IMG/VR virus record: IMGVR_UViG_3300005264_000003
Location: 1 to 64,000 of that record
DNA length: 64,000 bases
Source: a virus
Reading direction: 5' to 3' (one strand)
Below the pieces are notes generated by a model. It was not told where the DNA came from. It did no database searches and saw only the letters and a program-made list of their open reading frames with translations. Positions 14,316 through 50,054 of this stretch are shown here, in pieces (the first letter of the stretch is position 1; each line of letters begins with the position of its first letter). The translations under genes and the position numbers were made by a program.

Positions 14316-14325
14316 CAGCAACGAC

Positions 14326-14354: not shown

Positions 14355-14371
14355 TTCGAAAAGGAGAACAC

Positions 14372-15116: not shown

Positions 15117-15121
15117 TAACA
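15112..15121 (+). promoter_or_regulatory. GTTAWTAACA element upstream of the head genes
   Basis: GTTAATAACA begins 43 nt before ATG 15155. Confidence 0.55.
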
Positions 15122-15154
15122 TAATGAAAGTCAAAATAAACCAAGGAGAACGAT

Positions 15155-15514: not shown

Positions 15515-15515
15515 A

Positions 15516-30437: not shown

Positions 30438-30854
30438 ATGAAAGAAGAGATTAGCAAGGAAGCGCAACCAGTTTTAGAGAGTAGTTTTTGGGATGAAATT
30501 GATTGGGATAAAGTATCTCATAATAAGATTGACAGAGGAAGCTTCTTGAGAACTAAGTCACTTAATAGTAAGATATTTGCTACGTTTCTTGGACCGCAAG
30601 ATCAGTTGCAATTCTACTTATTTAAGCCTCTTGGATGGGCTAAGTACAAAGACATTAGATCAAAAGACTTAGATAAAGACACTGTGCATGAATATATCAT
30701 AAATGCATGTCTAATACATCCAGCCAGCAATCCAATTGCTGTAGGCAATATTGATGCAGGTATAATGCTAACACTTGTAAATCAAATACTTACTATAAGC
30801 AACTTCTTAACGGATCCAAATCAGGCACTTGAATTACTATTAGAGATCAAATAA
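30438..30854 (+). CDS. Tail assembly chaperone
   Basis: YLFKPLGWAKY...CLIHP...AGIMLTLVNQILTISNF; position before the giant tail genes. Confidence 0.6.
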   Translation: MKEEISKEAQPVLESSFWDEIDWDKVSHNKIDRGSFLRTKSLNSKIFATFLGPQDQLQFYLFKPLGWAKYKDIRSKDLDKDTVHEYIINACLIHPASNPIAVGNIDAGIMLTLVNQILTISNFLTDPNQALELLLEIK

Positions 30855-31429
30855 TGTCAAAATATAAAATCTCTACCAGTGATTACACGATAGTATTTAA
30901 CTCTATAAGTGCAGAGGATGCAGACAGGTATCACAGAATAATAAAGCAGACAGATAGCGCAGAGGCTGAAGAGATGTTATTCTTGTCAATAGTGGAAGAT
31001 AAGAGCATTGACATAGAGTCACTCAATGCTGGCGTTATACCAACAGTGCTGTATTGCGCATTTCATATATCTGGATTTATAACTATAGATGAGTCTGTTC
31101 CAGACAACATAGAGAAGGCTAGAACTAGAATAGCAAGTAGCCTTTATCATTCCTTACTGTATCCAGCTATAATAAAGACTCAGCCAGGGTATACATTAGA
31201 TATGCTGCGGAGCAAAAGCTTAAATGACTTAATGGAACTATTCGCTTTAAGCGAGATAATCCTAGGCAAAGACATTGTCAATATCGAAGAAATGAGAAAA
31301 ACTATTGCTGAAAGTAAACAAAATAAAGTTTCTCCATCTGCTGGCGGAATTGCCGGAGTAACATCAGAAGAGCTTGACTTAGTTAAGTCAATGATTGAAG
31401 CGGAAGAATTTAATAGCGAGATATTCTAA
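30854..31429 (+). CDS. Second tail assembly chaperone-like protein
   Basis: Shares an AG-[IV]-x-x-T pattern with the upstream gene; TAATG coupling on both sides. Confidence 0.55.
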   Translation: MSKYKISTSDYTIVFNSISAEDADRYHRIIKQTDSAEAEEMLFLSIVEDKSIDIESLNAGVIPTVLYCAFHISGFITIDESVPDNIEKARTRIASSLYHSLLYPAIIKTQPGYTLDMLRSKSLNDLMELFALSEIILGKDIVNIEEMRKTIAESKQNKVSPSAGGIAGVTSEELDLVKSMIEAEEFNSEIF

Positions 31430-34400
31430 TGAGCAGTAAGCCAATAAATCCTATAACATTTTCGGTAGATATAGAGGCTAATAATCTCCCCACTGACTTT
31501 CATATAGTGAGAGGCCTTGGGGAGCCCTTTAGGCTTCCTGACCTAAGCAAGATGGTGGATGGATTTGCAAACGTAGATATATATCAAATTGGATACATGG
31601 CCAATGGTGAAAAGAAGCATGTTGACGTAACTGAAACTACGTTTAAGCATCCCGAGGTCTCTACGCCATTAAAGTATTCAGAAGAATATATAGACGCTGC
31701 TGGCAAGACGCGTTCGTTTAAGAGAGCTACTACAGTTACAGCATCAAGAGAAAGCTATGAGTCTCTATTCAAGTCTAGTGTAAATAAGATGAATGCTGCA
31801 TCTACCGAGCAATATAGGAAAAAAGTACTGCCCTACTACTTACTGCAGGCTAGGAAGAATACTCAGTTCATGCTAGATAACGGTGGATCAATTGGTGCAA
31901 TGCCTTTTGATGTATTCATAAAGCCATATGAAGAAATAAGAAGAATAGCTGAATCTCCTGAGAATGGGTTTAAGTATAGTCAAGTTACGCAAGCTAACTT
32001 TAGAGGTAAAGGTACAGACTCTCTCTATGAAGCAATAGATAATCTTGTCAGCTCAGCTAGCTCTAAGGATGCACCAGCTGTATTTAGATCATGGAACCCA
32101 GCATATGATGCGCCAGTTATACTGGCAGCACTACAGAAGTCGGGGCATACTGCTCTGGCAGACAAGTTTATTGCACAGCATAAGTCTGGACTATTAAAAA
32201 TACAAGGCATAGAAGATGAGTGGCATGAAGTTTTATGGAAGTTAACTAAAGAGAATCCTGATATAGCAGATGATATAAGAGTAGGAATGCACCCAATAGC
32301 AGCAATTGCTACGGGTCGGCCTGGTGGCAAAGTAACTACGTATGGAGAATTTAAGTACTCTACATATAGCTGGAAGCAAGAGGACATAGCTAAGCTTTTC
32401 AGGGGACATAAGAATTTTAGAGACATAGGCCATATAGCATCAACAGATATATTACAATCAGAAGAGCTTGCTAGTTTTATGCAGGCAGTAAAAGAAAGAG
32501 CTAGGAAAACTCTTGGACTTAAAGAGGCTACAGAAGCATTAAATCTAGAAGATACAGGCAATGCATTTACAGATGCCTTTAATGCTGAGATAGCTAAGAC
32601 CTTTGGTGATAATGGCGCTACGACAGCAAGGGGAATGCTAAGAGAAGCAACTATAGATTCAAAGAGGAAGAATAAATTCTTTAGACAAAACTTTGGATCA
32701 TGGTTTGCTGCTGACACATCTAAAAGAGCAAGAGCAAGCTGGACAAAATATCCTGGAGTTATAGGAGCAGCAATTGCAGTAGCAGGAGCAACATATTTAG
32801 CTAATAGTGAAACGAAGACAAGTCTAGGCAGCGGTTTTTCAAGTATCAATGGAGTTCCTATAGGCAAAGGCATTGGGTCAGGAATAGACAAGGACAGTCC
32901 TAATCTTGGCGCTAATATGGTTGGCGCTATGGCATCAGGCATTGTTGTGCCTGGAATAACAATGGCAGCTATTGGATACGGAGCAGCGCAAAGACATCCT
33001 ATGCTGGGATATTCTCCATCTAAGCCTGAGACCTTTACGCAGGCCTGGAATCAAATTAAGAGTACGATAAGATATGGCATCAAGACTACAGAGGGTCAAG
33101 TATCTTTAGCTCGCGTATTCGAACTAGGAAGCTTAACAGATTATTTTTCTAGCAGTAGAACTTACTTGGCTGGAAAAGGCAAGAGTGGTAATTTGCCTAA
33201 CGGAAAGCCTGGCAGGTACTATAAGTTTAATGTTATACAGACAAAGAATGGCATAACAAGAGTACTTGATCAGAAATCACCAGGCCACGGCATGGACATG
33301 ACTAAATTTATGCATGTACTCAAGCGGGATAATATATCTCAATATAAAAAACTAGACAGTATTCTTAATCCAAACATTAAAGATATGGCGCCTGAAAAGA
33401 GGCCTTACACAAGGCAAATAAGAATAGCATCCACAGTTGGCGGTGGAACAAGAGTGCAGTGGGACGACTATGCCACTGAAAGCTTCGGCAAGGAAAACAG
33501 AATAACGAATTATTTATTAATAGATAAACATATAGGCATAAATAAACTACGGGACGTAATACCGCAAGCTGCCAATCTGCATACTAGGCAGACTGATAAA
33601 AATAATTTGCGCAGCACGAATACAGCAGCCAGGGAAGCTGTTCATAGGGATATGTATAGATATGGCGGGTTTGCAAAAGATGAATACGAAGATTACATGG
33701 GCAGGCTTGTTAAGCCTGGATTTGCCAGAAGAAGCGAGCTTGGTAACACTGCGTGGCGCGGAGCCGAGAAGTTAAGATGGATGTTAGATCTGAACTCGAA
33801 GAGTGTTGGTGAGGCTAACAATTTACTTATACCTAATGTAGCTGAGACGCTTAATAGCACGAAGGCTGTAGTGCTAGTAAAGGATGCTAGATACTATGCT
33901 GATGTAATACCAAACTGGCTCATTGGTAGCATGGATAGATTCCTTGAAACTCCATTTGAGTTCTTAGGAGTTGAGCATGGTAAAATAGAAGGGCTTGCTA
34001 ATAAATTGAAAGCATCCCCCAACTTTACAACTAATACATTCGGTAAGGCATTATCTGCTATAGAGAAGCCTCACTTCGGATTAGGACTTGCAGCAAATGG
34101 TGGGTCTGCTTCTAGGTATCTGATGTCATTTGGACTCAAGAGAGTACTGCCTGCATACCTAGCTATAAACATGTTCTCGCTTACTGATCACTTACTAGGT
34201 GCAGCTACTATGTCTCCTACTGGAAGAGGACCTCTTACATCTGTTCCCATAAAAGCATATGAGACAGCATCCTTGCTATATACTAAGATGTCCGATATTG
34301 TAGGGCTAACTGATTATGCAAAATGGCAAGCAGATGTTGCTCCTGGATCTACGGGTATCGGAATATTCGCTCCCGCTGCGACAATGACTGCAACTTATTT

Positions 34401-37284
34401 TATGGGTGAGGTAGCATATAAGCATGGGCCAGATTTTATTGGCGGAGCAATAGACAAGGCTGCAAAGAAAGCAATTGAGCATCCATTCTTACAGAAAGCA
34501 CTTAGAAAGGAATCATTTACTGGTGCAGTTTCTAGGGGGCCAGTGGAAAGGTTCATGTCTTATGCTATTAAGAATCCTAAAAAGGCTTTGTTTGGATTAG
34601 CAATGTTGCCTGCAATACCTTTTGTTCCAGGATTCCTCGGATCAGATAAAAACTATATGGAAAAAAAGGCTGAATACGATGGCGAAAAAGATGTTGCCAT
34701 TAGAAAGTATCGTGGATGGCTATTATCTTCATCTCCATTTGAGGGCGGTAGAGTTAGATCGTTTCGTAGGCATGCTTTAAATTTGGTTGAGAGCGACTTT
34801 GAGAACAGAGGGGTAGTCTATCCTTCTTTCGCAGAAAGATTTGCTCACAGCGCAACCCTAGGCCTCTACAAGCCTAATATGCTAGAGGAGTACCACAAGG
34901 AATCGCAGCCAGTATATAAATCTGCTCCATTCGGAGCAAACATTCCATTACTTGGTCCTTTGATAGCCGGTACGTTGGGTCAAATAATTGGACAAAAAAC
35001 ATATCACGTTCCAGGAGAAACAGCAGGAGAGGGCGATGGAGTTGGATATGATATGGGCATCGGACTAGAGCAGTCATTAAGTGATGGCGAGTCAAGAGCT
35101 ATGATTGCTGGTGATGGTAGTACTGGATATATAATGGGCCTAGAAGATCCTGCATCTTTAAACTCTATGGCTTCAAGATTTGCTGACACACTTTCTGATT
35201 TATCCGGTTTCCGTGGCTTTACAACAAAGACACTTTACAGTCGAGGATCAGGAAAGTCGCTGCCAGATGATTACACACCATATGCGCAAGATGCAAGTCA
35301 AATGTATAGTCCCGCAGAGCAAATGTGGCAATACAATCTTGGTGACATAACAGTAGTTGGTGGTGAGTTTTTACGTCGTGTATTACAAAATTCTGAGAAG
35401 AAGTGGCAAGTTAATGATATACCGAACGAGTTAATGGGAGTAAGCTGGATACCGCAGAGTGATAATTATGGTAAAGACTTAACTCATGGCACCACTTTCG
35501 ACAAGGTAGACATGGGTTGGCTTTACGGAGCTAGAAAAGGCTGGGAATTTTTATACCCAGGAGAAGCTAATGGAGAAATGGAAACATATGGGGCTCCAGT
35601 AAGAACAGAAATATTGTCTCATATAGCACCTTACTCTAGACAGTATAAACAAGAAGCAAAAAAGACATTAGACATGGCTCTTGACGATAGAATAGATCCA
35701 AGAAGAGAGCAGAGATTCTATGAGACTCTAGAACAAGTTTCTCAAGTTAAAGAACAGTTATATGCTACGGCAGGAGAATATACACATACAATAGATACAG
35801 AAAGTAGATCTGGTGTAGTGCAGTCAATGGATGAGTCAACTGGGTCATTTATGATTAATAATACGCAGTATAGGCTGGCTGGGGTATCTACAAATGAGGC
35901 TGATATAAGATCAAGGCTATTGCAAAAAAAAGAATTTGAGAATGCTAGACAACTAAGCGCTGAAGTGCAGAGAGTTCAGCTTCAAACAGCAGAGATAATG
36001 AGAAGCAATCTAGCTCCAGGCACGCATATAGACATGGACGTTGCTACAGCAGCAATGCTACCTAGTGCTACTAACCTGGGATATGAAGCGAGAATCAGCG
36101 GACTTTCAGAAAAGATGCTTGAGGCTGGTGCTGCTTTTGCTGATACCGGTAACATAGCAACACATAACATGGCGCAAGATAGACATGGTATGTTTAGTAA
36201 GCTACTAGCTTCGCATTGGGAAGGAATGACGTCAGTTAACTCGTATTGGAATAAGAAGCTTATATCTCAAAGAGACTATCTTGATAACTATACCACTAAT
36301 CAAGTATTTAACCGAGAAGTAAAGCTTTGGACTAGGCCTATCGATCACATACTAAAGCCGTTTATTGCATCAACTATGCATAATTGGTTCGGGCTAGATG
36401 CGATACCTTCATTTACTAAGCAGCGCAGAGCTACTCAGCAGTATTGGGATATATTAAAGTATATAAAATACAAAACACTATCTACTAAATCTAGGGCTGA
36501 CGGAGATCTTGATTCAGCTACTTACTATGAAACTCAATGGAGAAGCACTATGGTAGGTGCTGATCCAACCAATGAAAGCAAGAGAGACGAACTAATGGCT
36601 CTTCCTGGAAATGAGAGACAGTATTTTAATTACTTCTCAGCTGAATCAGATCCAGATAAAAGATCTGAAATATTTAAGTATTTACCAGAGCCAGCTAAGA
36701 GAATATATTCAAGCATATGGCTAAAGAAGATGGCAGAGACGTCGAGTAACCAAGAAGTTCAAGCAGCTTGGGCAGGACTAAAATCATCTGAAGGCTGGAG
36801 TCTTTCAGAGGAAGAGGAAGCTGACTATATAAATGAAACTAATGGCAATGTATCTAAGGGCGACTGGGCTAGAGCAAGATTTGTACAGCAATATGCTAGA
36901 GAAAATGATCTTCCTGGACCTGAGTGGTCAGGCTGGAACTCAAATGTAGATATAGATAACACACAACTGCTTTCATTAATGGAAGATGGAGAGAATGCGC
37001 AAGACTATGGATTTTTTGATAGTAAGATACGTAAAGCTCTATATGACGATGATGCATATAAGGCAGCAACCGATATAGATTCGGCTAGTACCACTGCCAG
37101 CGTATTAATGGGAAGCGCACTTCCCTATTTAATGGAAGATAGCATGTCTTTATCTTACGCCGTGCCTGTAAGTATGTCTAGTCCTACTATTGAAATGAAT
37201 ATAGAGACTAATGGATTCAATAAAATATTAATGAGAATGAATGACTTAGGGTCATCACTACTTCCTGATGAATTCCTAGATTAA
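31429..37284 (+). CDS. Tape-measure-position giant protein (1951 aa): N-terminal DEDDh 3'-5' exonuclease-like domain, hydrophobic segments, degenerate SNase-like region
   Basis: ExoI SVDIEA (D14,E16), ExoII SWNPAYD (D227), ExoIII HIASTD (H335,D340); YRLAGVSTNE near residue 1480; follows the chaperone genes. Confidence 0.7.
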   Translation: MSSKPINPITFSVDIEANNLPTDFHIVRGLGEPFRLPDLSKMVDGFANVDIYQIGYMANGEKKHVDVTETTFKHPEVSTPLKYSEEYIDAAGKTRSFKRATTVTASRESYESLFKSSVNKMNAASTEQYRKKVLPYYLLQARKNTQFMLDNGGSIGAMPFDVFIKPYEEIRRIAESPENGFKYSQVTQANFRGKGTDSLYEAIDNLVSSASSKDAPAVFRSWNPAYDAPVILAALQKSGHTALADKFIAQHKSGLLKIQGIEDEWHEVLWKLTKENPDIADDIRVGMHPIAAIATGRPGGKVTTYGEFKYSTYSWKQEDIAKLFRGHKNFRDIGHIASTDILQSEELASFMQAVKERARKTLGLKEATEALNLEDTGNAFTDAFNAEIAKTFGDNGATTARGMLREATIDSKRKNKFFRQNFGSWFAADTSKRARASWTKYPGVIGAAIAVAGATYLANSETKTSLGSGFSSINGVPIGKGIGSGIDKDSPNLGANMVGAMASGIVVPGITMAAIGYGAAQRHPMLGYSPSKPETFTQAWNQIKSTIRYGIKTTEGQVSLARVFELGSLTDYFSSSRTYLAGKGKSGNLPNGKPGRYYKFNVIQTKNGITRVLDQKSPGHGMDMTKFMHVLKRDNISQYKKLDSILNPNIKDMAPEKRPYTRQIRIASTVGGGTRVQWDDYATESFGKENRITNYLLIDKHIGINKLRDVIPQAANLHTRQTDKNNLRSTNTAAREAVHRDMYRYGGFAKDEYEDYMGRLVKPGFARRSELGNTAWRGAEKLRWMLDLNSKSVGEANNLLIPNVAETLNSTKAVVLVKDARYYADVIPNWLIGSMDRFLETPFEFLGVEHGKIEGLANKLKASPNFTTNTFGKALSAIEKPHFGLGLAANGGSASRYLMSFGLKRVLPAYLAINMFSLTDHLLGAATMSPTGRGPLTSVPIKAYETASLLYTKMSDIVGLTDYAKWQADVAPGSTGIGIFAPAATMTATYFMGEVAYKHGPDFIGGAIDKAAKKAIEHPFLQKALRKESFTGAVSRGPVERFMSYAIKNPKKALFGLAMLPAIPFVPGFLGSDKNYMEKKAEYDGEKDVAIRKYRGWLLSSSPFEGGRVRSFRRHALNLVESDFENRGVVYPSFAERFAHSATLGLYKPNMLEEYHKESQPVYKSAPFGANIPLLGPLIAGTLGQIIGQKTYHVPGETAGEGDGVGYDMGIGLEQSLSDGESRAMIAGDGSTGYIMGLEDPASLNSMASRFADTLSDLSGFRGFTTKTLYSRGSGKSLPDDYTPYAQDASQMYSPAEQMWQYNLGDITVVGGEFLRRVLQNSEKKWQVNDIPNELMGVSWIPQSDNYGKDLTHGTTFDKVDMGWLYGARKGWEFLYPGEANGEMETYGAPVRTEILSHIAPYSRQYKQEAKKTLDMALDDRIDPRREQRFYETLEQVSQVKEQLYATAGEYTHTIDTESRSGVVQSMDESTGSFMINNTQYRLAGVSTNEADIRSRLLQKKEFENARQLSAEVQRVQLQTAEIMRSNLAPGTHIDMDVATAAMLPSATNLGYEARISGLSEKMLEAGAAFADTGNIATHNMAQDRHGMFSKLLASHWEGMTSVNSYWNKKLISQRDYLDNYTTNQVFNREVKLWTRPIDHILKPFIASTMHNWFGLDAIPSFTKQRRATQQYWDILKYIKYKTLSTKSRADGDLDSATYYETQWRSTMVGADPTNESKRDELMALPGNERQYFNYFSAESDPDKRSEIFKYLPEPAKRIYSSIWLKKMAETSSNQEVQAAWAGLKSSEGWSLSEEEEADYINETNGNVSKGDWARARFVQQYARENDLPGPEWSGWNSNVDIDNTQLLSLMEDGENAQDYGFFDSKIRKALYDDDAYKAATDIDSASTTASVLMGSALPYLMEDSMSLSYAVPVSMSSPTIEMNIETNGFNKILMRMNDLGSSLLPDEFLD

Positions 37285-37294
37285 CGGAGAGCAT

Positions 37295-40200
37295 ATGTCA
37301 TACAACAATCCATACGATAAAGAAGACGGAATACTTGGTACTATTGTGAAAGGCACTGCTCTTACTGGTGCAGGCGTAGTGGCAGTTAATGCTTATAGAA
37401 ATCCAGAAGCTACAAGACGTAAGTTTGGTCAAGCAATGGACATGATTGCTCCAATTAAGAGCCCTAAGCTTAATCCTTATCAGCAGAGACTAGCAAGAGC
37501 GAATGAGATTCTATTTAGCACAGTAGCAGAAAGAGATGCTAGAATTAAATCAAAAGATAAAATTAGAGCAGCAGAAGCCATGCAGATGACTGGGTCTAAA
37601 AGCTCATGGTCTGCAATAACGCCTGTTGCACTACCAATTGGAGCTGACAGTAAGCAGAAAGTATTGAATGAGATTTCAGCTCAAGTTAGCGAGTATTCAT
37701 TTGAGAAGCTAGATGACATTCGCGATATAGACAATAGGCCCATTGGAAACAAAATACATAAACAGCTTAAAAAGAAGTTTCCAGGACAGATAACAAATGC
37801 TCCTAAGTTTAAAGGTACGAGAGCTACATGGAGGATAGGAGGCGAGGATCTAGAGATAGATTTCTCTAAACGCATAGGACAAACTGAAGGCTTCATGAAG
37901 CGCATAGGTGAGTCAATGTATGTAGCTCCATGGAGAGCAGACCTTCAAAGCGTCGATGGGAAACTAGGGTATCAGTTATCTGATCCCAACACTGATATAT
38001 TAAGCTTCCTAAGCGATATGAATGATGAAAATGGAAATGGTAGATTATTCTGGGGAGTAAATGAGAATAGCGAGGTAAGAAGTAAGTTTGAGAAATTAAC
38101 AGGCAGTGGAATGGATAGTAAAAGGGCTATGGCTAAGCTTAGATCTGAAGCAGAGAAGTATTCATTGAGAGAGTTAGATGTAGTCAGGAACTTGCAGGAA
38201 GCAATTAAAAGAGAAACAAGAACTGATACGCAAATAGCCGATAATGATATTATAGGAAGAAATATGCACGCCTCGAAGGTGCAAGTAAATGAGCACAGCG
38301 CATATCTTGTTGGGCAAATGCCTGCTCATAGAGGAGTTGGGTCCAGAGCTCTTGGTACTGGTGCCATTAATAGTGATGTAATTGACGGCAAGAACGTGCA
38401 AGAGTTATACGATATACATACAAATTCAACAATGGATAACAATCTAATAACAATATCTACTAGCGGCAATACTAGTAAAAGAATAAGAGAGATGGCTATA
38501 AAGCATGGAGGCTATGTAGATAGCCAAAGCACAGTTGCTGAACTTGGTTGGAGCATGAGAGTAGGATCTACAGCTGCATATGCTGAAAGAGAGAAAAGCT
38601 TTAAAGGAATAATGTTTGAAAGCCATAAGCTTGCCAAGACTCCGTTTAGTGGCGTAGGAGGCACGAAGATAGATAGTGATGCATTGGCTAGGATTAGACA
38701 CAACTTCTTTATTAATGATGATGGTGCAGATAGTGATTTCAAGTATAGTTCTCATGTACAAAGCAAGGCTATTGTACAAAAAAATAAGGGCGTTTATAAT
38801 ATGGCTCTTGCTTTAAGTCCATTTGAATCTGAAGCAATAATGATAGGAGACGCAACTAGCGAGAACATGAAGACACTTGCTCCAAAGACAACTAGTGTAG
38901 CAGCAATGGCCATCAAGAAAGGCGATAAGGCATATGAAAAATCTTTCGTTGAAATGAAGTATTTCGATGTGGATTCTAATTCTCAGAAATCATTCACAAA
39001 TCTTACGCTTCAAGACATAATGGAAGATTCACACAAAAGCAATATTATGACTCAAGGATTTGGTGAGATACACATAAAGAGAGGTACGATATTAGGCAAA
39101 AAGCCAGTTGGTCAAGAATTACTCAATGATGGCACTGTAAATGATATAATTGCTAGAGAAAGCGGAATTATAAAAACACAAGTCAACAGGCTGATTGGTA
39201 GAGATGATTATATATCTACATTAGCATCACATAACAGAATGATTGTTGATGGTCATAAGCTAGCAGGAGGAGTTAAGATTGTATCACAAGTGCATGAGGA
39301 TGCAGTTAAGATGGCACTTAGCAATGTAACTACACGTAACACGACTAACTTTAGAGACAATGAATTAGTAAATGAATTGACTCAAAATGCAGGGCTTGGT
39401 AAAGCAGAAGGTACTATGTCACTGGACTTTCTTAAAAAAACACTTCCTAAAAAGGGTCCAAATAACAGAGTAGTGCTTGGTAAGGGTTCTTCTGAGTTAA
39501 TGCAAGTTTTACAGTCTGCGATTGGGTGGCAGGCTCTGCAAGGTGATCATGATGTAAAATTAAAAGGTAAGGCGGCACAGCAGTTCTCTAAGTATATTAA
39601 TAATGGTAACACTCATTTAATTAATGGAGAGTTAAACTTATCAAAGATCATGAAGAAAGGTAACTTATCTTTCAAGCAAATGATACATGATAAGAAGTTA
39701 TTCGCAGACCAGTATGAGCACACAATTGAAACACTTGGCCTAATAAGAGAAGGGTTTGGCAATGGAGATGCTCAAACTATTATTCAGCCAATGAGAGGAA
39801 GTGTAGACATAGGCTTTTCATCAAAAGGAGCTAAGTCTGCAGCCACAACAATAGACACTCACATAAGGCAACTTGAAATACTTGGAGAAAGAGCAAAGAG
39901 TGGCACAAATGCAAGGAAGCTTCTTGCAAAACAAATAACAATTGGTGAGATAGCGAAGACAGTTACAGCTAATGCCAGGGAATTAGCAATGGGTGTAATT
40001 GGTGGTGTAATGCCTCAAGAGCAAGCATGGAATTCTATAGGTAAAGAGTTTAGTGAAATGAAATTATCTTCTAAGGCAATTTTTAATTTTTTAGATAATC
40101 CAGAAATACTTAGAGACCTAGGCGTCAACAGTACTACTCCTGCTATTAAAATGAGCAACGAGTTAAGACTTATGGAAAGTGGAGCCAGGGGCCATAATAT

Positions 40201-42685: not shown

Positions 42686-42695
42686 AGGTAAATAA

Positions 42696-45600
42696 ATGTC
42701 GATTACGAATGAAGAGTTAGTAGAAATCCTAAAAGAAGCTGACCTGTGGCCACCAGTTAAGAAAGCTCCGGCAACTAGCATTAAGAAAGTGCATTCAGTA
42801 CCAGAAGGATTGGTTACATATCATAATAAAGTAATAACTAGCCTTGTTGTTGTCGATGGTGATACGATTGAAATCGTTGAGCCTGGCATTGAAGATAATG
42901 AGTCTATACGTTATTATGGAATTGATACAAATGAAACAGCCAAGGACTGGCTAGGCAAGCCAGAAGAAGATTATGCTAACTGGCAGACACAAGTACATGA
43001 TGAGCTAATAAGATATGCTATAGACAAGAATCTTCATATAGAAATAAGTGATCACCTAGCAGGTTACTTCGGTCGTACTGTAGCTGATATACGAATAGAC
43101 GGATCTAGTGTATCAGGAATATTCGTAGGAGCAGGCATTACTCCGCCCAGCATGGGGGCAGATACGAAAGTAGTTCCAGATACATCTATTACTAAAAATC
43201 AAATCATAGCAAACTATAACACTGCTATGCATAAGCGTTCTGGTATCTGGAAAAATGTTGGCGAGTATGTCTATCACCCCAATAACAATATTGACGAAAA
43301 ACTTATAATTGACCTGTTTAATGATACATATTCTACTAAAAGAAAACTAGGTAAAGGCATAACTAAGATTGGTGACGTGTATCTAGATATACCTCCTACG
43401 CAAATAGCTATTACTCAACTCAGAACATCACGCTCTGTGCCTCAATTGGGCGGTGAATCAAAGCCTATTAGTGAAAACTCAGCTAGAACAATCATAAAAC
43501 TTCACTTAGTGTTCTCAGGCGAGGAGACTATAAACACTGATCTGGTAAGAATTTTACAGCAATTTAGGTACTGTCCAATAAACCTGCTTTACTCTTTCGA
43601 TATATTTGAGAAAGTTGTAGGCGATAATAAATATCTACTAGAAGGATATGGTCAAGTAGATGATGAGTGGTTTATACCTGTAACAATGGATGAGTATACT
43701 ATACATACAATTGAAGGTCATCCATCCTCGCTTGGATGTGTCTTACAGTTATCTTTATTTAACTATGCAGCATACTTTAATGGAGATATAGCAGAGAAAG
43801 TTCAGTATTACAAATATGAAATTGAAAGTGGAGAAGTCGACTCTAAGAGATCTTTAGCTGGTGTAAATAGAGACTTTGTATACACTTCACACCTAGAAGA
43901 AGCTGTGCATCCATATAATTTATATATAACTAGTCACTTAAAAGATAAGTTGCACATGTTTAATGGTTCAGATAGCTATACTGAGCTATTCAAGGTAGCA
44001 GGCACTAGAACTCCCCCTAACTATGAAGCAATTAGCGCTAAAGATGCAGGTAGGCTTTCTGATGAACTAGATGAGCTTTACTTGATACTTAGCTCTAGAG
44101 TTAAAGAATTAACAATGTCTACGAGTATCTTTTTTAGGAATAACTTTACATGGCTGCCAGTTATTGGATACTCACAACCAGTTGCACAATACATAGGGCC
44201 TGGAGACTCTGTAGTTACACTCGAGTTGCAAACTGAGGACAACTCAGTTATATCTAGTTTATTAAATACATTCGGAGAAGAATCAACAACAAGTATTGTT
44301 GATACATTTTATGATGATAGATATATATTATCTAACTCACTTACCAGATTGTGTGCTACTGAAGTCTGCAGTATGAAGAATTTTTCAATGTCTAATGTTA
44401 GTGGTCACCCAGATGCGTCAGTTATTAATATGGTATTTTGTAAGACAGCATATGCCACTACAGCAAATGAGGTTAATCCTGTTGCTGAGTTTGACGAGTA
44501 CTGGGGTCTTCAGAGAATATTAAAATCACTAGACAAAGAAGACATGGAGGCAATTGAAACTGAACTCAAGAGCGATAGAGTTACAAGACTAGACATTGGC
44601 GACAGTGCTGACTCTTTCATTAGGCTGGCAGAGAGAAGCGGAAAGACTGATACGGAAAAGAAGGTAAATGAAAAAACAATAGCTGCTATGACAGTTGCTC
44701 TTAATAAGCTAAAGGGACATAAGAATTCCATGGAGTTTAATGCCCCTGAGTTTCATTTGCTTCAATTTAGAACTAACTTAAATTCAAGTATATTAAGTGC
44801 ACGAATGAGCGGTTTGTCTGGAAAAATTATTCTTCTAGATGGATTGAGCATGTATTCAAGAATGACGGTGTCTCAATTCCCTGCTAATAAAACACTAGAT
44901 CAGCTTAATCTTAATGCGAATAAGGCATATAAGACTTACTATGGTGGAATGCTTAGTTCTTATCCTCGCAGCCGGGTTGCCAAAGAGATGACTAGAAACT
45001 TCAGAGATGCCTTAGGCGGACACGGAGAAGCATCTAGGATATTAAGAGCTTATGTTAGTAAGGTATACGCAGGCGGATGGCTTACTAGTGATATAACAGG
45101 ACCGCCAGTAAGCTTACTAGATTTAAGCGAGAAGCTGCATGAAGAATACCTTAATCCTAGCTATAGTAATGACTATGTAAATAGAATTAACACTCATGGC
45201 ACCTATAATGGACATGGATGGGATCTTTCTGATTACGATAGATGGATGGGTAAGCTGGTTGACAAGTTATGTCATGCAATTGAAGCTAAGTCAACTGGAT
45301 TGCTTTCTAAGTTTAAAGAGAGGTGGAATGAGCAGTCTCTCCTAGAAAGCAAGGGATACTCTGTTATAATGAAGTTCGTTGGCACTGCAATAGAGGCTAG
45401 AGTTATTAAGACTGCTTTTATTTTAGGTAGCAGAGACGCTAATAGGAAAGAAGAAGTGTCTGAGGCAAGAGAATATTTCCATACCCCAAGGAATATATCG
45501 TACCCTTCATTTTCAGTTATATATAATGCAGATGATGGTACAGAAGGAACTGATTTAATACTAACAGATAGTGATGCTAATGGAGAGTCTAAAAATTGGA

Positions 45601-48600
45601 CATTTCAGGTAACATTTTTTCCTTCTGAGCACAATGAGGGCATTAGTAGATATTGGCACGAGGAGCCAGACTCTGAAGCTGCATCTGAAGCTGAGCTCGA
45701 AGAAGCTAGAGCAAAAATGGATGTAGTGTCACATGGCAATATAGTTATACCTTATGCTGGACATAGGTATTTCCCTAACATAGACTTATACCTGAAGCAT
45801 CAAGAGATATTCTCTACTACCGTAGGGGAATGGTTTGCTAATAAATATATAGAGGACCCATATAAGATTTTCGAGCAAGTATCTGAATCAGTAGAGCAGT
45901 CTATAGCTCCACTAATGGATAGGCCGGCATGGGAAGCTACATACATTGAAAGAAGTCATGGTGTTGCATTTGCTAACAAGATAGCAGAAGACCCACATGA
46001 TCCATGTAAGTTAGTTGCAGCTATTAACTGGATGAGTTTTGGTAAAGATTTCAGTGAAGACAATCGAGACACAGCCTTATTAAAAGGCAAGCCTAATAGC
46101 ACAGTAGATCGCTGGATAAATAAATGCATACCAGATATGATTCTTAGTAGCGAAGATGGTAGCCCTAAAGATCTCGACGTTCCTTTTAGTACTGTTCATC
46201 AGTGTGCTGCCCTTAGTAGTGGCTACTATGACTCGGCTAAGTTTCAAGGAAAAGAGATAGTTGCATTTAGAATGAATGTAATGAGTAAGACAAGTATGTC
46301 TCTCAATACAGCAGGACAAACATCTAGGGGATATAATCTTCAAAACAAGATGTGTGCTATAGAGTCAGATGGTGCACTATACTTGCCTTCAGATGTGCCT
46401 GAAGCTTCACTTGCTGGCAGCATAGATGATTCAGCTAAGTTCATTCATTCTCCAGCAGACACGCAAATACACTACGGAGGCAACTATGCAAATGGGTGTG
46501 ACTTGACATTATTGCAAAAGCACCCAGAGGGATTCGCAAAGGAGCTAGGGCGAGAACAACCTGCATTACAAGCGCTGGGTCAGAAAGATGGATTAAATAC
46601 AATTGAAGCTGACGCAATGCTTAGGGAAAAATTCTATAAGATATTACTAAAAAGCAACAGTAAAGGTGCCGAGTTCAGTAAGTCGCCAGCACAACTAAGG
46701 GGTATAGCTAAGAGTCACGTAAGTACACTTAAAGACTCTATTGCTCCAGCTACAAATATTTACTATATGACAGAGAAGCTAATAGTAGATTATCTAAGCA
46801 ACGGAGTAACGTCTGAACTAAAGGCTGATTTAAAAATAATAGTATCAAAGTACATAGCAGACTTTGGCCCCTTAATAGATGATGCGACAAAAGAGTTGGT
46901 ATCTAGAAATGCTCTTGAATCTATGATGCCTACTATTGGGATAGAAAATGCATTTCCTACATATAAAATGTATATAATTGAAGAAGACATGTCTGATATA
47001 AGATACTTCTCAATGGATGATTGGTATGATCTTAGGACAGCTCAAGACTTGATGATTGTAAAGTCTAAAGACAATCCAGCACATATGCTTAAAGGTAGAA
47101 TTATAGTAGATCATAGATATATAATTACTAGCGACAAAGTGAACCAGAAAGTTTCTGATATTAGCAATCCTCAGGAATTTGAAGTTGAGGCACCAGCACC
47201 GGGGATTGTTGATACTAGGGCTGAAAACCATTTCAATAAAGGAATGACTCCGTTACGAGAAGGTATGAGAATTTGCATTAAACTAGGCTACCACTCTGAC
47301 CCAAGAGCTATGGACACAGTCTTTATTGGTACGATTACAGGACTTAGTGGCAACATGAGTACTGGCGTATATGACCTAGAGGCTAGAGGTGATGGTAGAG
47401 AGCTACTAACTCCTCCGTCACAAGATGTAAAGCCTAATATCTCAGGAGAGAATTTTGCTGAGATTATATCTATTATGATGAGAAATAGCCCTGCTGTTAT
47501 GCACTTTGGAAGAACATATGGTTCATTTTTAGAGAAATTCTCAAGAAGGCACTGGGCGCTATTTGCACTTGCTAAGCACGGAAGACTATCTAAGTCTCAT
47601 GTTTTTGGAGCCGTAGGTATGTCAATGGGACTAGCTGCAAGATCAGCAATCAGGCAGGCAGCCATGAAAGGATCTCTTTCTGAGGAAACTGGCATGGGCA
47701 TGTGGGCGTACATGATTCATTCATTTAGTCGAAAGACTATGTCTGTATATGAAGAAACAACAGCCTTGTATAACAATACGCTTTTGCCTTTATCTGACAA
47801 AGGATCCCATGAGAGATGGGCTGCATATAGTAATAATATATTTGACGGCGATGATGGTAAATGGGGTATCTTTAGCTCAGAGTTTGGTAACGCAAAGTTC
47901 TCTCAAGTAAAGGGCTGGTTAGCAGGAAATACATTTGATCCAAGAAAGGCTAGTGCTCAAACTGCCGGCATACTATATAATACATTCAAGCAAGGCAATA
48001 ATCCTATTGATGATAACATATTCGCTATTGATATTTGGAATACTTTTGTTCCATGGCGCACATTTGACATGCCAATCAATAACACAAGAACTATTTGGGA
48101 TGTGCTTGTTGATATTAAGAGAATGTATCCAAACTTTGCACTTGACGTAAGACCGTATGGGTCTAGATCTACGCTATTTATGGGGCCTAAGGAGTTTAAT
48201 ATATGGAGAACTGACGACCCACTACAAGCAGTTGCTCCTCAGTTAGCCGAGATAACTACCAATGAGGCATCATGGGATGATAGTTTTAGCTATAACTTAT
48301 CAGCTAAAGATGCCCTTAGGTCACAGGTTATATTGGATAGATTTGGTGACCGGAAGCCATCAGAAAACAATGTAGCAGGATGGGTGCCATTTCAAAGGCA
48401 GCATACGGTATCTTCTTTCAGTGACATAGTAATGAATGGCATCCGATCTACTCCTTATAGAGGATGGAATAACGTCGTAGTAACGTATTCAAAAGGCCCT
48501 GGCGATAACGAGAGTAGGGCTCCTATTATGCAGTCTGCCAATGCAAACTTAGATCCAAAAGCTATTAGAACAAAATATGCTAATATAGACTGGACAGATG

Positions 48601-50054
48601 ATCCGCAAATGGCCAAGCAGTATGCCATTGGACTACTCAAAGAGGGCGTTGAGAGAATGTACGGCGGTACGTTAATCATAAGAGGTAACTCTAAGATAGA
48701 GCCGCATGATAAAGTATTTATATGTGACGCAGTTAATAAGATGTATGGATGGATAGAAGTAGAAACAGTGATACATAAATTTGATCTAAGTATGGGCTTT
48801 ACAACTCATATAGTACCAAACATGGTATGCTCTGTAAATAACGACTCTTATAGTACTTTTAGTAATGTATTTAGAAGACAAATGGTTGAAAAGTGGGGGA
48901 CATTAATCTTAGGCTATGCCGGTGGCGCTGCTGTTGGATATGGAGTAGCAGGATTAATTGGTCCAATAGGATGGGTAGCAAGCGCTGTGGTTTCAACGGC
49001 AGCATTAAGTATAAGTGTTGCTGGTGCATATCGAGAAATAAAAAGCAAAGCAGAGTCTATAATGGATGCAGCTGAAGCCGAAGGCAAGGCCAGGAAAGAA
49101 GAGAGACTCTTGTCTGACAGACTAAATTTCATGTTTCTATCAGACGCTGTAAAACACGGATATGACAGAGGAATAGCGGCTCATTACCTATTAAGATTGT
49201 TAGGTGAAGATGGCCTAGGTATAAAAGCAAGAGACATAAGAATGCCTAAGCTAGCAGGAAAGAGGGCGATTAAGAAGGGCGTTGATATTGCAGCGGAAAG
49301 ATGGGCTTTTGCATCAAAGTTTATTGGTGGATTTAGAGATGAGTACAAGGTAGGCAAAGCCATTAAGAAGCAAGCTTTATTTGATAGTATTGCAAAGGAT
49401 GTTGGCAGAACAATTGACTGGGATGCTATTGATGCTGCACCAACATTAACAGATGCGAGAGTTAAGTTAGAGGCTGAATTAAATAGCTTAATAGAAAAAG
49501 CTTCAGAGGAGCTATCTGACGATGCAAAGAAGACGATAACAAGATCGCTAGGCAGGGACTTTGGCGATGCTCTCGTGCCCAGGGATACTATCTCAAGAGC
49601 AGAGAGTTCTTCAGCAGGTGCGTTAAAGAGCACTAAAGCTAAGCTGTTAAAAAAGGTTAAAAAAGTTCGAGTAACGAAAGGCCTTAAGGCGGCAGGAGGC
49701 TTTGGGTTATCTGTTTTTGCAATAGGAGCAGACATGGCTCCAGCGCTAGTGGAAACATTTGTAGTTAATGCTATGTTAAACTCAAATACAATAATATGTC
49801 ATCCGCTATACAGTAAGCATGGTATGCTTATGAATGGATTAGATGGATACCAAAACAAGACATCATATAAGCATCTTAAGGGTATGATAGTTCAAGCTGA
49901 AGGCTATGTTAATAAGGCTAAAGAGGCGCTTAGTGAATGGGATCACATGTTCAACTTGAGCAATGGAGCGACACCTATGAGTGAAGACGCAGCAGCGCAA
50001 CTAAGAGCTTCTGCTATTAACTTGAATGAGGATACAGGAGTAGGAGATGAGTGA
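42696..50054 (+). CDS. Giant baseplate hub-like protein (2452 aa) with N-terminal thermonuclease (SNase) domain
   Basis: VVDGDTI, IRYYGIDTNE and GYFGRTVA (SNase); hub-like LREGMRICIKLGY..VFIGTIT..ARGDGREL and GTLIIRGNSKIEPHD...VETVIHKF...GFTTHI. Confidence 0.8.
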   Translation: MSITNEELVEILKEADLWPPVKKAPATSIKKVHSVPEGLVTYHNKVITSLVVVDGDTIEIVEPGIEDNESIRYYGIDTNETAKDWLGKPEEDYANWQTQVHDELIRYAIDKNLHIEISDHLAGYFGRTVADIRIDGSSVSGIFVGAGITPPSMGADTKVVPDTSITKNQIIANYNTAMHKRSGIWKNVGEYVYHPNNNIDEKLIIDLFNDTYSTKRKLGKGITKIGDVYLDIPPTQIAITQLRTSRSVPQLGGESKPISENSARTIIKLHLVFSGEETINTDLVRILQQFRYCPINLLYSFDIFEKVVGDNKYLLEGYGQVDDEWFIPVTMDEYTIHTIEGHPSSLGCVLQLSLFNYAAYFNGDIAEKVQYYKYEIESGEVDSKRSLAGVNRDFVYTSHLEEAVHPYNLYITSHLKDKLHMFNGSDSYTELFKVAGTRTPPNYEAISAKDAGRLSDELDELYLILSSRVKELTMSTSIFFRNNFTWLPVIGYSQPVAQYIGPGDSVVTLELQTEDNSVISSLLNTFGEESTTSIVDTFYDDRYILSNSLTRLCATEVCSMKNFSMSNVSGHPDASVINMVFCKTAYATTANEVNPVAEFDEYWGLQRILKSLDKEDMEAIETELKSDRVTRLDIGDSADSFIRLAERSGKTDTEKKVNEKTIAAMTVALNKLKGHKNSMEFNAPEFHLLQFRTNLNSSILSARMSGLSGKIILLDGLSMYSRMTVSQFPANKTLDQLNLNANKAYKTYYGGMLSSYPRSRVAKEMTRNFRDALGGHGEASRILRAYVSKVYAGGWLTSDITGPPVSLLDLSEKLHEEYLNPSYSNDYVNRINTHGTYNGHGWDLSDYDRWMGKLVDKLCHAIEAKSTGLLSKFKERWNEQSLLESKGYSVIMKFVGTAIEARVIKTAFILGSRDANRKEEVSEAREYFHTPRNISYPSFSVIYNADDGTEGTDLILTDSDANGESKNWTFQVTFFPSEHNEGISRYWHEEPDSEAASEAELEEARAKMDVVSHGNIVIPYAGHRYFPNIDLYLKHQEIFSTTVGEWFANKYIEDPYKIFEQVSESVEQSIAPLMDRPAWEATYIERSHGVAFANKIAEDPHDPCKLVAAINWMSFGKDFSEDNRDTALLKGKPNSTVDRWINKCIPDMILSSEDGSPKDLDVPFSTVHQCAALSSGYYDSAKFQGKEIVAFRMNVMSKTSMSLNTAGQTSRGYNLQNKMCAIESDGALYLPSDVPEASLAGSIDDSAKFIHSPADTQIHYGGNYANGCDLTLLQKHPEGFAKELGREQPALQALGQKDGLNTIEADAMLREKFYKILLKSNSKGAEFSKSPAQLRGIAKSHVSTLKDSIAPATNIYYMTEKLIVDYLSNGVTSELKADLKIIVSKYIADFGPLIDDATKELVSRNALESMMPTIGIENAFPTYKMYIIEEDMSDIRYFSMDDWYDLRTAQDLMIVKSKDNPAHMLKGRIIVDHRYIITSDKVNQKVSDISNPQEFEVEAPAPGIVDTRAENHFNKGMTPLREGMRICIKLGYHSDPRAMDTVFIGTITGLSGNMSTGVYDLEARGDGRELLTPPSQDVKPNISGENFAEIISIMMRNSPAVMHFGRTYGSFLEKFSRRHWALFALAKHGRLSKSHVFGAVGMSMGLAARSAIRQAAMKGSLSEETGMGMWAYMIHSFSRKTMSVYEETTALYNNTLLPLSDKGSHERWAAYSNNIFDGDDGKWGIFSSEFGNAKFSQVKGWLAGNTFDPRKASAQTAGILYNTFKQGNNPIDDNIFAIDIWNTFVPWRTFDMPINNTRTIWDVLVDIKRMYPNFALDVRPYGSRSTLFMGPKEFNIWRTDDPLQAVAPQLAEITTNEASWDDSFSYNLSAKDALRSQVILDRFGDRKPSENNVAGWVPFQRQHTVSSFSDIVMNGIRSTPYRGWNNVVVTYSKGPGDNESRAPIMQSANANLDPKAIRTKYANIDWTDDPQMAKQYAIGLLKEGVERMYGGTLIIRGNSKIEPHDKVFICDAVNKMYGWIEVETVIHKFDLSMGFTTHIVPNMVCSVNNDSYSTFSNVFRRQMVEKWGTLILGYAGGAAVGYGVAGLIGPIGWVASAVVSTAALSISVAGAYREIKSKAESIMDAAEAEGKARKEERLLSDRLNFMFLSDAVKHGYDRGIAAHYLLRLLGEDGLGIKARDIRMPKLAGKRAIKKGVDIAAERWAFASKFIGGFRDEYKVGKAIKKQALFDSIAKDVGRTIDWDAIDAAPTLTDARVKLEAELNSLIEKASEELSDDAKKTITRSLGRDFGDALVPRDTISRAESSSAGALKSTKAKLLKKVKKVRVTKGLKAAGGFGLSVFAIGADMAPALVETFVVNAMLNSNTIICHPLYSKHGMLMNGLDGYQNKTSYKHLKGMIVQAEGYVNKAKEALSEWDHMFNLSNGATPMSEDAAAQLRASAINLNEDTGVGDE

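Follow-up and report, generated by a model that had tools for sequence, protein, structure and literature searches.

Introduction

An RNA polymerase (RNAP) carried in a phage tail has been demonstrated once, in the siphovirus P23-45, in which gp96, a two-barrel enzyme forming the N-terminus of a tape measure of 5,002 amino acids (aa), transcribes the pre-early genes (PMC10770324). In the Bacillus phage 0305phi8-36, a two-gene tail chaperonin lies one gene upstream of orf146, which was assigned as the tape measure from a tail-length correlation, while gp147 was linked to T4 gp27 and P2 gpD and described as a hyperplastic baseplate hub with exchangeable N- and C-terminal enzyme domains; a staphylococcal nuclease (SNase) domain on the hub homologue of BtI1 was noted in the same work in 2007 (PMC2147016). 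In this study, we analyzed three consecutive giant genes encoding the proteins P0001, P0002, and P0003 in a window of 64,000 nucleotides, which comprises bases 1–64000 of one linear 87,348-bp contig (IMG/VR record IMGVR_UViG_3300005264_000003) with a completeness of 42% according to IMG/VR and CheckV. The source is probably an uncultured myovirus from marine sediment with a genome of about 200 kb, belonging to the 0305phi8-36 lineage.

According to our reading, to which we assign a probability of roughly 60%, the three giants are tail-assembled proteins that are ejected at infection, and P0002 is a virion-borne polymerase with which transcription of the incoming DNA begins. An earlier note on this DNA, made by a model from the letters alone, had proposed an injected module of exonuclease, polymerase, and thermonuclease and knew of no characterized myovirus precedent. 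Precedents exist for its parts, since the tape-measure-fused polymerase of P23-45 (PMC10770324), the three-giant block and hyperplastic hub of 0305phi8-36, and the hub SNase of BtI1 (PMC2147016) were already known. What appears to be new is the combination of all three enzymes, the DEDDh exonuclease on an orthologue of gp145, and a sizeable family of single-chain β′-like polymerases that contractile-tailed phages, ME3 and WH1 among them, encode in the tape-measure slot.

The P23-45 paper was the sole precedent found in the literature on tail-slot polymerases in contractile phages, although the supplements of PMC10770324 and PMC7824862 may list the family. No mention of the phages MTATph1, KLEB27-3, and Edson was found in the papers listed, and PMC12619734 and PMC4870245 concern other lineages. 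A survey of 224 jumbo phages that included ME3 states that self-encoded polymerases are absent from phages outside two groups (Iyer et al., 2021; PMC7824862). Since ME3 carries gp036, a member of the family described below, the family seems to have been overlooked.

Results

A predicted single-chain RNA polymerase

P0002 (1,796 aa; window positions 37295–42685, + strand) is predicted to be a single-chain RNAP on the basis of profile, motif, and fold searches. The single sequence was uninformative: Pfam, PHROG, and phage-collection DNA and protein searches with P0002 returned nothing, and the Atlas search reached a score of just 0.79. Related-locus searches with P0002 or alignment A1 in IMG/VR, and with A1 in metagenome contigs, returned no P0002 relatives. 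Single-sequence PDB searches with P0001, P0002, and P0003 gave chance matches only, as did the SNase piece of P0003 alone, and Pfam searches with seven sub-pieces at E ≤ 5 gave nothing useful.

A word-based search found the distant homologue P0004, which is 23% identical to P0002 over its full length and has the canonical sequence NADFDGD aligned with NGDHDGD of P0002. An exhaustive HMMER search with residues 597–1796 of P0002 yielded, apart from the query, 42 cluster representatives, most of them 1,650–1,900 aa long; for 41 of these, E was ≤ 1e-10. Alignment A3 (n = 30) was assembled from P0002, 25 of these 42 matches, P0004, and three translations from related loci, with 17 short matches dropped. 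Although its members are only 17–36% identical to P0002, nine positions were invariant in 30/30 sequences, namely D1319, D1321, G1322, and D1323 in the predicted metal-binding motif NGDHDGD (P0002 1317–1323; 41243–41263), R1281 and P1283 in the R-x-P element upstream of it, and the basic residues K672, R681, and K730. When the A3 profile was compared with the PDB, all 13 matches were β′ subunits, including phiKZ gp55, and all fell on the R-x-P/NADFDGD site. No match to a β subunit was obtained for the P0002 family, either by profile against the PDB or with PF00562.

An AlphaFold model of P0002 597–1796, based on a 34-row alignment, was of moderate confidence (pLDDT 69.7, pTM 0.65). Among the 50 Foldseek matches listed from the PDB, all were RNAP largest subunits or QDE-1, with the non-virion RNAP (nvRNAP) of phage AR9 at the top (E 1.5e-4). 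Comparison with VIA over the Foldseek list gave Z 9.4–9.8 for bacterial β′ subunits, with model residues 369–1053 (P0002 965–1649) aligned on E. coli β′ 23–1353, which places a β′-like module at about P0002 965–1650 (40187–42244). The barrel with the metal motif (model 518–759) superposed on E. coli β′ 344–501 with Z 9.7 and a root-mean-square deviation (rmsd) of 3.1 Å over 145 residues. In a VIA search against 48,161 chains, ranks 1–11 were all largest subunits of multisubunit RNAPs (Z 7.8–9.0), from AR9, M. tuberculosis, phiKZ, vaccinia, Pol I, Pol II, Pol IV, African swine fever virus (ASFV), archaeal, and plastid enzymes; the β′ subunit of M. tuberculosis had Z 8.9. Single-chain RNAPs had lower Z values (RDR2 7.5, QDE-1 7.4, P74 gp62 5.9, P23-45 gp96 5.0, crAss gp66 4.7). 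Their alignments start at model residues 34–73, corresponding to P0002 630–669, and a candidate first, β-like barrel bearing the three invariant basic residues likely lies near P0002 667–740 (39293–39514).

As far as the model goes, the β′-like module and its metal site are well supported, and P0002 is predicted to be a single-chain two-barrel RNAP nearer to the cellular and jumbo-phage enzymes than to the crAss type. The RNAP signature that the earlier note had seen in this protein was borne out by the NGDHDGD motif, its conservation in 30/30 sequences, and the β′-like fold. Its label "crAss-type" is probably not the right one, given the weak match to crAss gp66 (Z 4.7, rank 46) as compared with Z 7.8–9.0 for the largest subunits of multisubunit enzymes.

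Two further observations concern this family. Its most conserved stretch is formed by the C-terminal 90 residues (42404–42682), which are predicted to be disordered (pLDDT <50) and have near-invariant columns from N1704 to Y1795. The consensus of this tail, GDGTP.DPNDLPSVNNPSF followed by the terminal VSVR.DG..PYK.DM, makes it a candidate docking peptide, and a faint echo of it was seen in ME3 gp036. In addition, two further BFVD entries matched the P0002 model: an uncharacterized protein from the Microcystis phage MaMV-DC (E 2.1e-4) and, from the uncultured siphovirus ctnpt50, a protein annotated as "minor tail protein" (E 3.7e-4). Polymerase-like proteins associated with tails may be more widespread.

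Position of P0002 within a conserved three-gene block

The open reading frames (ORFs) of P0001, P0002, and P0003 lie on the + strand, are separated by 10 nucleotides at each junction, and together take up 18.6 kb of the contig. On the upstream side, the first ORF begins on the final base of a 191-aa ORF, and on the downstream side the third ORF shares its end with the one that follows. The description in the earlier note of three tightly spaced ORFs of 1951, 1796, and 2452 aa between the tail chaperones and the spike was reproduced, coordinates included. Neither promoter-like sites (59 vs. 61.2 ± 8.3) nor terminator-like sites (9 vs. 10.3 ± 3.6) were enriched in the block.

IMG/VR contained seven loci with the P0001 family, six of which had a full-length P0001 relative. 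The three-gene order singled out in the earlier note was kept throughout these six: a P0002-family gene followed directly downstream in 6/6 (one was cut by the contig end after 207 aa), and a P0003-family gene came next in 5/5 loci with room for it. All three enzyme domains co-occurred in every locus of this clade that had room. One of the loci, G004, is a genome of 206,638 bp that was rated 100% complete and has the three-gene synteny.

In each of the four cultured phages 0305phi8-36, ME3, WH1, and MTATph1, the tail chaperonins are followed by a series of large genes, the middle part of which is broken up in MTATph1. Giants 1 and 3 are orthologous across all four, with sharing restricted to the C-terminal ~800 aa in giant 1 and to the hub part in giant 3. 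Of the genes in the block, the middle one evolves fastest. WH1 gp095 (2,515 aa) was matched in the catalytic barrel by the P0002 profile (hhalign probability 95.4%, E 1.7e-8; HMMER E 2.4e-12) and has the motif KADHDGD. In ME3 gp036 (1,603 aa), an R-x-P element is followed by GGDHDQD. The best BFVD match to the P0002 model (E 9.2e-10) fits half of WH1 gp095, and the second (E 6.2e-7) is a piece of an ME3 protein that fits gp036, with both identities inferred from length. Comparison of the P0002 family with ME3 gp036 by hhalign was faint (1.6% probability, covering the C-terminal hydrophobic segment only), and a tblastn search with ME3 gp036 found ME3 itself only. MTATph1 CDS0027 and CDS0031 and 0305phi8-36 gp146 gave no hhalign match to the P0002 family, and DxDxD is absent from gp146 and the MTATph1 middle genes. 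WH1 gp095 is annotated as "virion structural protein" and ME3 gp036 as "hypothetical protein". As a separate observation, MTATph1 carries a transposase gene inside the block (OR602862.1 34538–36025; 19539–21026 in locus L011), which lies between CDS0027 (1309 aa) and small ORFs preceding the hub gene; the middle gene appears fragmented at this place and shows no polymerase signature.

The 0305phi8-36 record (NC_009760) lists gp145 and gp146 as "identified as virion protein by mass spectrometry" and gp146 as "hypothetical tape measure protein". Since gp145 is a virion protein and gp146 the assigned tape measure, the orthologue of P0001 is found in virions and P0002 occupies the tape-measure slot, which upholds the tail placement assumed by the earlier note. 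For P0002 itself we infer a virion location from its position, not from homology. In the order of the block, P0001 and not P0002 comes first after the chaperone pair. None of the three giants matched a tape measure in PHROG or Pfam, nor did any ORF scanned on the 87-kb, 42% complete contig, as the earlier note had also found when it saw no classical tape measure. There were no DNA tandem repeats scoring >42 in 30000–51000.

No second polymerase was detected in G004: its single P0002-like gene was the one A3 match, and PF00623, PF00562, and PF05183 were silent in this genome. In 0305phi8-36, a free-standing RdRP/YonO-like polymerase (RdRP: RNA-dependent RNA polymerase) is encoded at NC_009760.1 209484–211547 (orf99; PF05183 E 1.1e-20). 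Thus, G004, WH1, and ME3 have a slot polymerase and no PF05183, and 0305phi8-36 has PF05183 and no slot polymerase. A rule of exactly one two-barrel polymerase per phage, either in the slot or free-standing, was rejected because MTATph1 and G006 (98% complete) show neither, and the complementary pattern is therefore only partial.

A DEDDh exonuclease on P0001

P0001 (1951 aa; 31429–37284, + strand) was identified as the orthologue of 0305phi8-36 gp145 by blastp and hidden Markov model (HMM) searches. Its C-terminal module (about residues 1215–1865; 35071–37023) is widely conserved, with tblastn matches to WH1 gp096, Edson, and MTATph1, HMM coverage of residues 1106–1927 in loci L007, L010, and L011, and agreement by blastp.

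The N-terminal part, about residues 5–410 (31441–32658), is predicted to be a DnaQ-like DEDDh 3′–5′ exonuclease domain. No exonuclease match was obtained from Pfam with P0001 and the N-terminal 430 aa of three relatives. An AlphaFold2 (AF2) model of residues 1–430 had a pLDDT of 91.2 and a pTM of 0.90. In an unbiased VIA search, DEDD-superfamily folds made up all 50 matches listed (Z 7.0–11.9), led by the exonuclease domain of S. aureus DinG (Z 11.9, rmsd 3.5 Å, 177 aligned) and including Exo I (11.2), Pol III epsilon (10.9), TREX1 (10.5–10.8), and RNase T (10.5). The top Foldseek matches were weak (E 4e-3) and corresponded to the exonuclease lobes of family-B DNA polymerases. Alignment A2 (n = 27) contained P0001 and 26 of 30 relatives from the family search, with the fragments P0028 and P0050 as well as P0037 and P0041 left out. 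D14, E16, H335, and D340 were kept in 27/27 sequences and N223 in 26/27, while the position of D227 was D in 21 and E in 6 of the 27. The DEDDh signature read by the earlier note (D14/E16/D227/H335/D340) is hence present, and the fold model agrees with it. Judged from the model, the domain has a complete catalytic set and would be a gain relative to gp145.

A further kind of nuclease was observed in a relative. The giant-1 homologue of locus L003 (2151 aa; 9977–16429 of a 115,882-bp IMG/VR contig) contains an inserted REase_MTES_1575/DUF559 domain at residues 1277–1369 (PF18741, E 3e-22), which is restriction-endonuclease-like (REase-like), and P0046 was flagged likewise. As this is the third nuclease kind on the scaffold, the insert indicates that the scaffold repeatedly gathers nucleic-acid enzymes.

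A nuclease domain on the probable baseplate hub protein P0003

P0003 (2452 aa; 42696–50054, + strand) was identified by blastp as the orthologue of 0305phi8-36 gp147, the hyperplastic baseplate hub. Its hub-like region, about residues 1400–2065 (46893–48890), matched the giant-protein families phrog_20474 and phrog_8809, gave blastp matches to 0305phi8-36 gp147 (6e-8) and ME3 gp037 (1.5e-13), and matched ME3 gp037 and a KLEB27-3 baseplate protein by tblastn. ME3 gp037 is annotated as "shares homology to baseplate hub protein" (of 0305phi8-36), and the Atlas features of the region scored 0.97 to Mu gp44/GpP-like clusters. The P0003 family had no hhalign match to Mu gp43, and a profile search of the PDB returned no hub.

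The SNase domain lies at about residues 50–187 (42843–43256). PF00565 matched P0003 with E 0.0022 and 18.9 bits, under the 21-bit cut-off, and phrog_452 (endonuclease) with E 1.9e-6. Alignment A5 (n = 21) comprised P0003 and 20 of 22 relatives, the weak P0025 and P0026 being dropped, and its profile matched solved staphylococcal nuclease with E 1.9e-7. Taking D21, R35, D40, E43, and R87 of staphylococcal nuclease to be the equivalent reference residues, the six positions for catalysis or Ca binding are complete in P0003 (D54, D56, R72, D77, E80, R127). Among the 20 domain-bearing relatives, the six positions were complete in 12, five were kept in one, and the set was degenerate in seven. The Pfam cut-off was passed by two of five locus homologues (L001, 36.5 bits; L004, 29.3 bits), and precomputed PF00565 matches were recorded on four P0003 relatives. 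The SNase signature reported by the earlier note therefore stands on the family profile and the six positions. The region at about residues 205–610 (43308–44525) forms another conserved domain, with dense invariant columns in A5 and no Pfam match at E ≤ 5.

When the C-terminus of P0003 (48891–50051) was compared with the relatives P0006–P0024, most P0003 relatives had an extra C-terminal extension of 200–600 aa, which is lacking in P0003 and P0005, so the variable end is the C-terminal one. Hydrolase families recorded on the relatives were PF01464, PF01832, PF00877, PF01551, and PF18013 (transglycosylase, glucosaminidase, NlpC/P60, and M23 types). Transglycosylase-type (SLT) matches were located at the C-terminal end of the P0003 family profile, and a profile match to the solved tape measure 9b45 gp41 ran through the transglycosylase domain. 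Because P0003 is without the extension, its hub bears a nuclease and no recognizable cell-wall hydrolase.

Hydrophobic segments

Hydrophobic segments were scored by the Kyte–Doolittle method with a window of 19. P0001 has a Gly/Ala-rich segment at residues 493–520 (32905–32988; score 1.83) and another segment at 1052–1072 (34582–34644; 1.77). P0002 has one near each end, an N-terminal segment at 12–31 (37328–37387; 1.64), with a similar one in ME3 gp036, and a C-terminal segment at 1685–1708 (42347–42418; 1.62). In P0003, a long Gly/Ala-rich stretch at 2069–2112 (48900–49031; 1.76) has room for two helices, and a further segment lies at 2333–2361 (49692–49778; 1.54). Gly/Ala-rich hydrophobic segments were thus found in all three proteins, in line with the earlier note.

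Tail module and contig

Upstream of P0001 come, in order, the sheath, the tube, its paralogue, a protein of 493 aa, and a pair of small chaperone-like ORFs; downstream of P0003 come three small ORFs and then a gpJ/gp6-like wedge. The genes given with coordinates below lie on the + strand, as do all large ORFs. The tail sheath (902 aa; 24102–26810) matched phrog_16991 (E 5.4e-17) and the sheath genes of ME3, 0305phi8-36, and MTATph1 by tblastn. The tail tube (207 aa; 26870–27493) matched phrog_9206 and, by tblastn, the 0305phi8-36 gp140 region (5.8e-21) and WH1 (3.5e-28), and the tube paralogue (438 aa; 27599–28915) matched phrog_9206 with residues 206–410 and the 0305phi8-36 gp141 region by tblastn. 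The two tail-chaperone-like ORFs (138 and 191 aa; 30438–31429), corresponding to the two-gene chaperonin form, were assigned from their position and from the pair in relatives, which recurs in L003–L006 as 134–137 and 190–193 aa. The 138-aa ORF also matched ME3 gp033, a "putative tail chaperonin", by tblastn (4.7e-8). Downstream, a 125-aa ORF (50047–50424) was assigned to the P2 gpV-like spike slot from position only, with gp148 of 0305phi8-36 having 127 aa and PHROG giving no match, and the gpJ/gp6-like baseplate wedge (404 aa; 51295–52509) matched phrog_6 (E 2.1e-29) and the 0305phi8-36 gp151 region by tblastn (5.5e-13). Taken together, the sheath, tube, tube paralogue, next protein, chaperone, wedge, capsid, and portal had tblastn homologues in 0305phi8-36, ME3, WH1, or MTATph1.

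The whole contig (1–87348) carries nearly exclusively + strand structural genes, with replication and early genes outside the view, and it has no terminal repeat over its 87,348 bp. Among sequencing runs, the stretch was matched by one marine-sediment study, probably its source, and no RNA data set was listed. Tail-fibre-like giants are located at contig positions 78745–85526. The large terminase gene (window 6153–9071, + strand), with a weak N-terminal match to PF03237, is split by an intein (Intein_splicing on residues 187–543, E 3.5e-21; LAGLIDADG_3 on 386–474, E 2.6e-12).

Discussion

Under the reading that we prefer, the three giants would be built into the tail with the help of the chaperonin, in or around the hub and the tube lumen, and sheath contraction would expel them ahead of the DNA. 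The hydrophobic helices would insert into the envelope and line a DNA conduit, and the polymerase, anchored at the cytoplasmic face, would transcribe the first-entering genes without the host polymerase and might help to draw the long genome in, as was proposed for P23-45 gp96. The nucleases would be clade-specific accessory cargo. Membrane insertion, timing, and the DNA-pulling role are steps that we infer. The hub nuclease most likely acts at or outside the envelope, because relatives carry cell-wall hydrolases on the same scaffold, and for the P0001 exonuclease the most likely substrate is the 3′ end of DNA or RNA inside the cell.

Several points weigh against this reading. On the enzymatic side, the β′ matches of the A3 profile had E values of 0.14–0.68 and are singly nonsignificant, the Foldseek TM-scores of the P0002 model were low (0.12–0.34), and unrelated double-psi-barrel proteins reach Z ~7. 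The best Z values of P0002 (9–9.8) exceed the stated background of 7–8 only modestly. PF00623 and PF00562 (Rpb1/Rpb2) were silent in the window genome and four relatives, while 14/14 control genomes matched. The P0002 model spans residues 597–1796, and the placement of its β-like barrel is tentative. With regard to the tail, the mass-spectrometry notes cover gp145 and gp146 of 0305phi8-36, and gp146 is without detectable similarity to P0002. The basis of the "virion structural protein" label of WH1 gp094–096 could not be traced, as no vB_BceM_WH1 paper was found. The hub region failed in comparisons with Mu gp44 by hhalign (probability 0.1) and with Pfam, and the contig is 42% complete, so a second tape measure or polymerase may lie elsewhere in the phage. 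The lumen of the tail tube should not be able to take up a polymerase core of ~1000 aa in its folded state, and storage would therefore have to be unfolded or elsewhere, which is the same puzzle as for P23-45.

The nuclease domains were not detected in WH1, MTATph1, and the distant locus L007, and judging from these sequences, DEDDh and SNase are clade-specific add-ons. The earlier note had named sporadic or degenerate enzyme domains among relatives as a sign against its proposal, and such a picture was found in part. The SNase is degenerate in 7/20 relatives, the nucleases were undetected in the cultured distant relatives, and the polymerase is undetectable in the middle gene of 0305phi8-36 and MTATph1, while the DEDDh residues are kept in 27/27 and the polymerase site in 30/30 sequences.

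This difference in conservation bears on how far the three enzymes cooperate. In the most far-reaching version, the giants of large contractile-tailed phages of the 0305phi8-36 lineage form an ejected trans-envelope machine in which a membrane-anchored, single-chain polymerase of the β/β′ type begins transcription at the pore and helps to reel in the 200-kb genome, and in which the exonuclease of giant 1 and the hub nuclease trim DNA ends or remove host and defense nucleic acids for it. We regard this version as doubtful; if it were true, the machine would be a new genome-delivery device for myoviruses, and the P0002 family a new, deep, fused branch of the multisubunit-type RNAPs. A direct hand-off from nuclease to polymerase, as in the coupled "toolkit" of the earlier note, is possible and unsupported, and the three domains are not co-constrained, because the SNase set is complete in 12/20 relatives as compared with 27/27 for DEDDh and 30/30 for the polymerase site.

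The virion-borne enzymes could instead act separately, with the hub SNase serving as a tail-tip depolymerase that removes extracellular or envelope-associated DNA at adsorption, as a counterpart to the cell-wall hydrolases of relatives, the DEDDh domain attacking host or defense nucleic acids once inside, and the polymerase transcribing early genes from ordinary double-stranded DNA. Such a division of labor would agree with the exchangeable hydrolase domains on the same P0003-type scaffold in relatives and with the additional REase_MTES_1575 nuclease on giant 1 of L003. SNase requires Ca2+, which is plentiful outside cells, and this need would fit an extracellular site. The unequal conservation (SNase degenerate in 7/20, DEDDh kept in 27/27, polymerase in 30/30) points in the same direction, as do the SNase on the BtI1 hub and the assignment of such domains to the T4 tail lysozyme position (PMC2147016). 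The co-occurrence of all three domains in every clade locus with room argues against it, and we consider fully separate action possible without favoring it.

If the folded polymerase should not fit the tail lumen, the giants might be head-packaged ejection proteins of the type of the N4 polymerase, the crAss cargo, or the T7 core, encoded in the tail operon by chance. In N4-like and crAss-like phages, the giant polymerases of the virion are reported to be packaged in the head. Nevertheless, in every relative the genes directly follow the tail chaperonins and precede those of the spike and the wedge, the hub itself appears to be part of P0003, the tape measure that correlates with tail length in 0305phi8-36 is the middle gene (PMC2147016), and the P23-45 polymerase belongs to a tape measure (PMC10770324), all of which makes head packaging unlikely.

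P0002 might also be an ordinary non-virion polymerase that is produced late, serves middle or late transcription, and is not injected, a role suggested by the P0002-like gene being the sole recognizable polymerase of the complete relative G004. Its location in a late structural operon whose internal signals are not enriched, the hydrophobic segments at both ends, the conserved C-terminal tail, and the virion protein in the same slot of 0305phi8-36 speak against this role. Moreover, a product that is made only together with the tail genes would have to be carried in to start an infection; we consider this role quite improbable. Finally, that the enzyme-like domains are inactive structural relics reused in the tail is the least credible explanation, for although the SNase domain persists in 7/20 relatives with a degenerate site and hence can be kept without catalysis, the complete sets in 27/27 P0001 and 30/30 P0002 sequences down to 17–30% identity argue for selection on catalysis, and P0003 keeps all six SNase residues.

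If the tail-assembled, ejected polymerase is accepted as the working reading, the idea of a tail-borne RNAP is extended from a siphovirus to a myovirus tail operon, and to a different polymerase type, which looks closer to cellular β′ than to the known single-chain phage enzymes. The reading bears on how the expression and uptake of very long genomes start and proceed and on how a large enzyme is stored in or near the tail tube. The nuclease add-ons (DEDDh, SNase, REase-like) suggest a scaffold that gains nucleic-acid enzymes besides the usual cell-wall hydrolases. Since the polymerase gene is present in the cultured phages WH1 (gp095) and ME3 (gp036), the hypothesis can be tested at the bench.

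Comparison with known systems

The closest functional parallel is P23-45 gp96. Like gp96, P0002 is a predicted two-barrel enzyme with DxDGD, encoded at the tape-measure position of the tail operon and carrying membrane segments in the same protein, and for gp96, transcription of the first genes was proposed to take place at the pore through which the DNA enters (PMC10770324). The two systems differ in that the P23-45 tail is noncontractile and its polymerase, a member of the phage/plasmid/RNA interference (RNAi) clade, is the N-terminal fifth of the tape measure, whereas the window phage has a contractile tail and its polymerase takes up most of a distinct protein of 1,796 aa between two other giants. 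P0002 has no sequence similarity to gp96 and is nearer to β′ (Z 9) than to gp96 (Z 5.0).

With 0305phi8-36, the window phage shares the same tail module, the three-giant block after a two-gene chaperonin, and orthologous giants 1 and 3. In contrast to P0002, gp146 is without DxDxD; gp145 shows no DEDDh domain, matching P0001 in the C-terminal part only, and the polymerase of 0305phi8-36 is free-standing elsewhere in the genome.

The best fold matches of P0002 were the largest subunits of the phiKZ, AR9, and cellular enzymes (AR9 Z 9.0, phiKZ gp55 8.8, bacterial 9.4–9.8), and the P0002 family and β′ have in common the signature of R-x-P followed by N-A-D-x-D-G-D. These RNAPs consist of several polypeptides and do not belong to the tail, while P0002 is one chain with hydrophobic segments at its termini. 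The crAss phi14:2 gp66 is likewise a giant single-chain two-barrel polymerase of the virion type with DxDxD, but it matched P0002 only weakly (Z 4.7, rmsd 5.7 Å, 318 aligned, rank 46) and not by sequence, and it reportedly comes from a podovirus that packages it in the head.

Finally, the T4 gp5 lysozyme and the transglycosylase or peptidase domains of tape measures are catalytic cargo on a tail scaffold that is delivered at infection, as we propose for the three giants. Cargo of the T4 gp5 type acts on the cell wall, whereas the predicted cargo of the window phage acts on nucleic acids.

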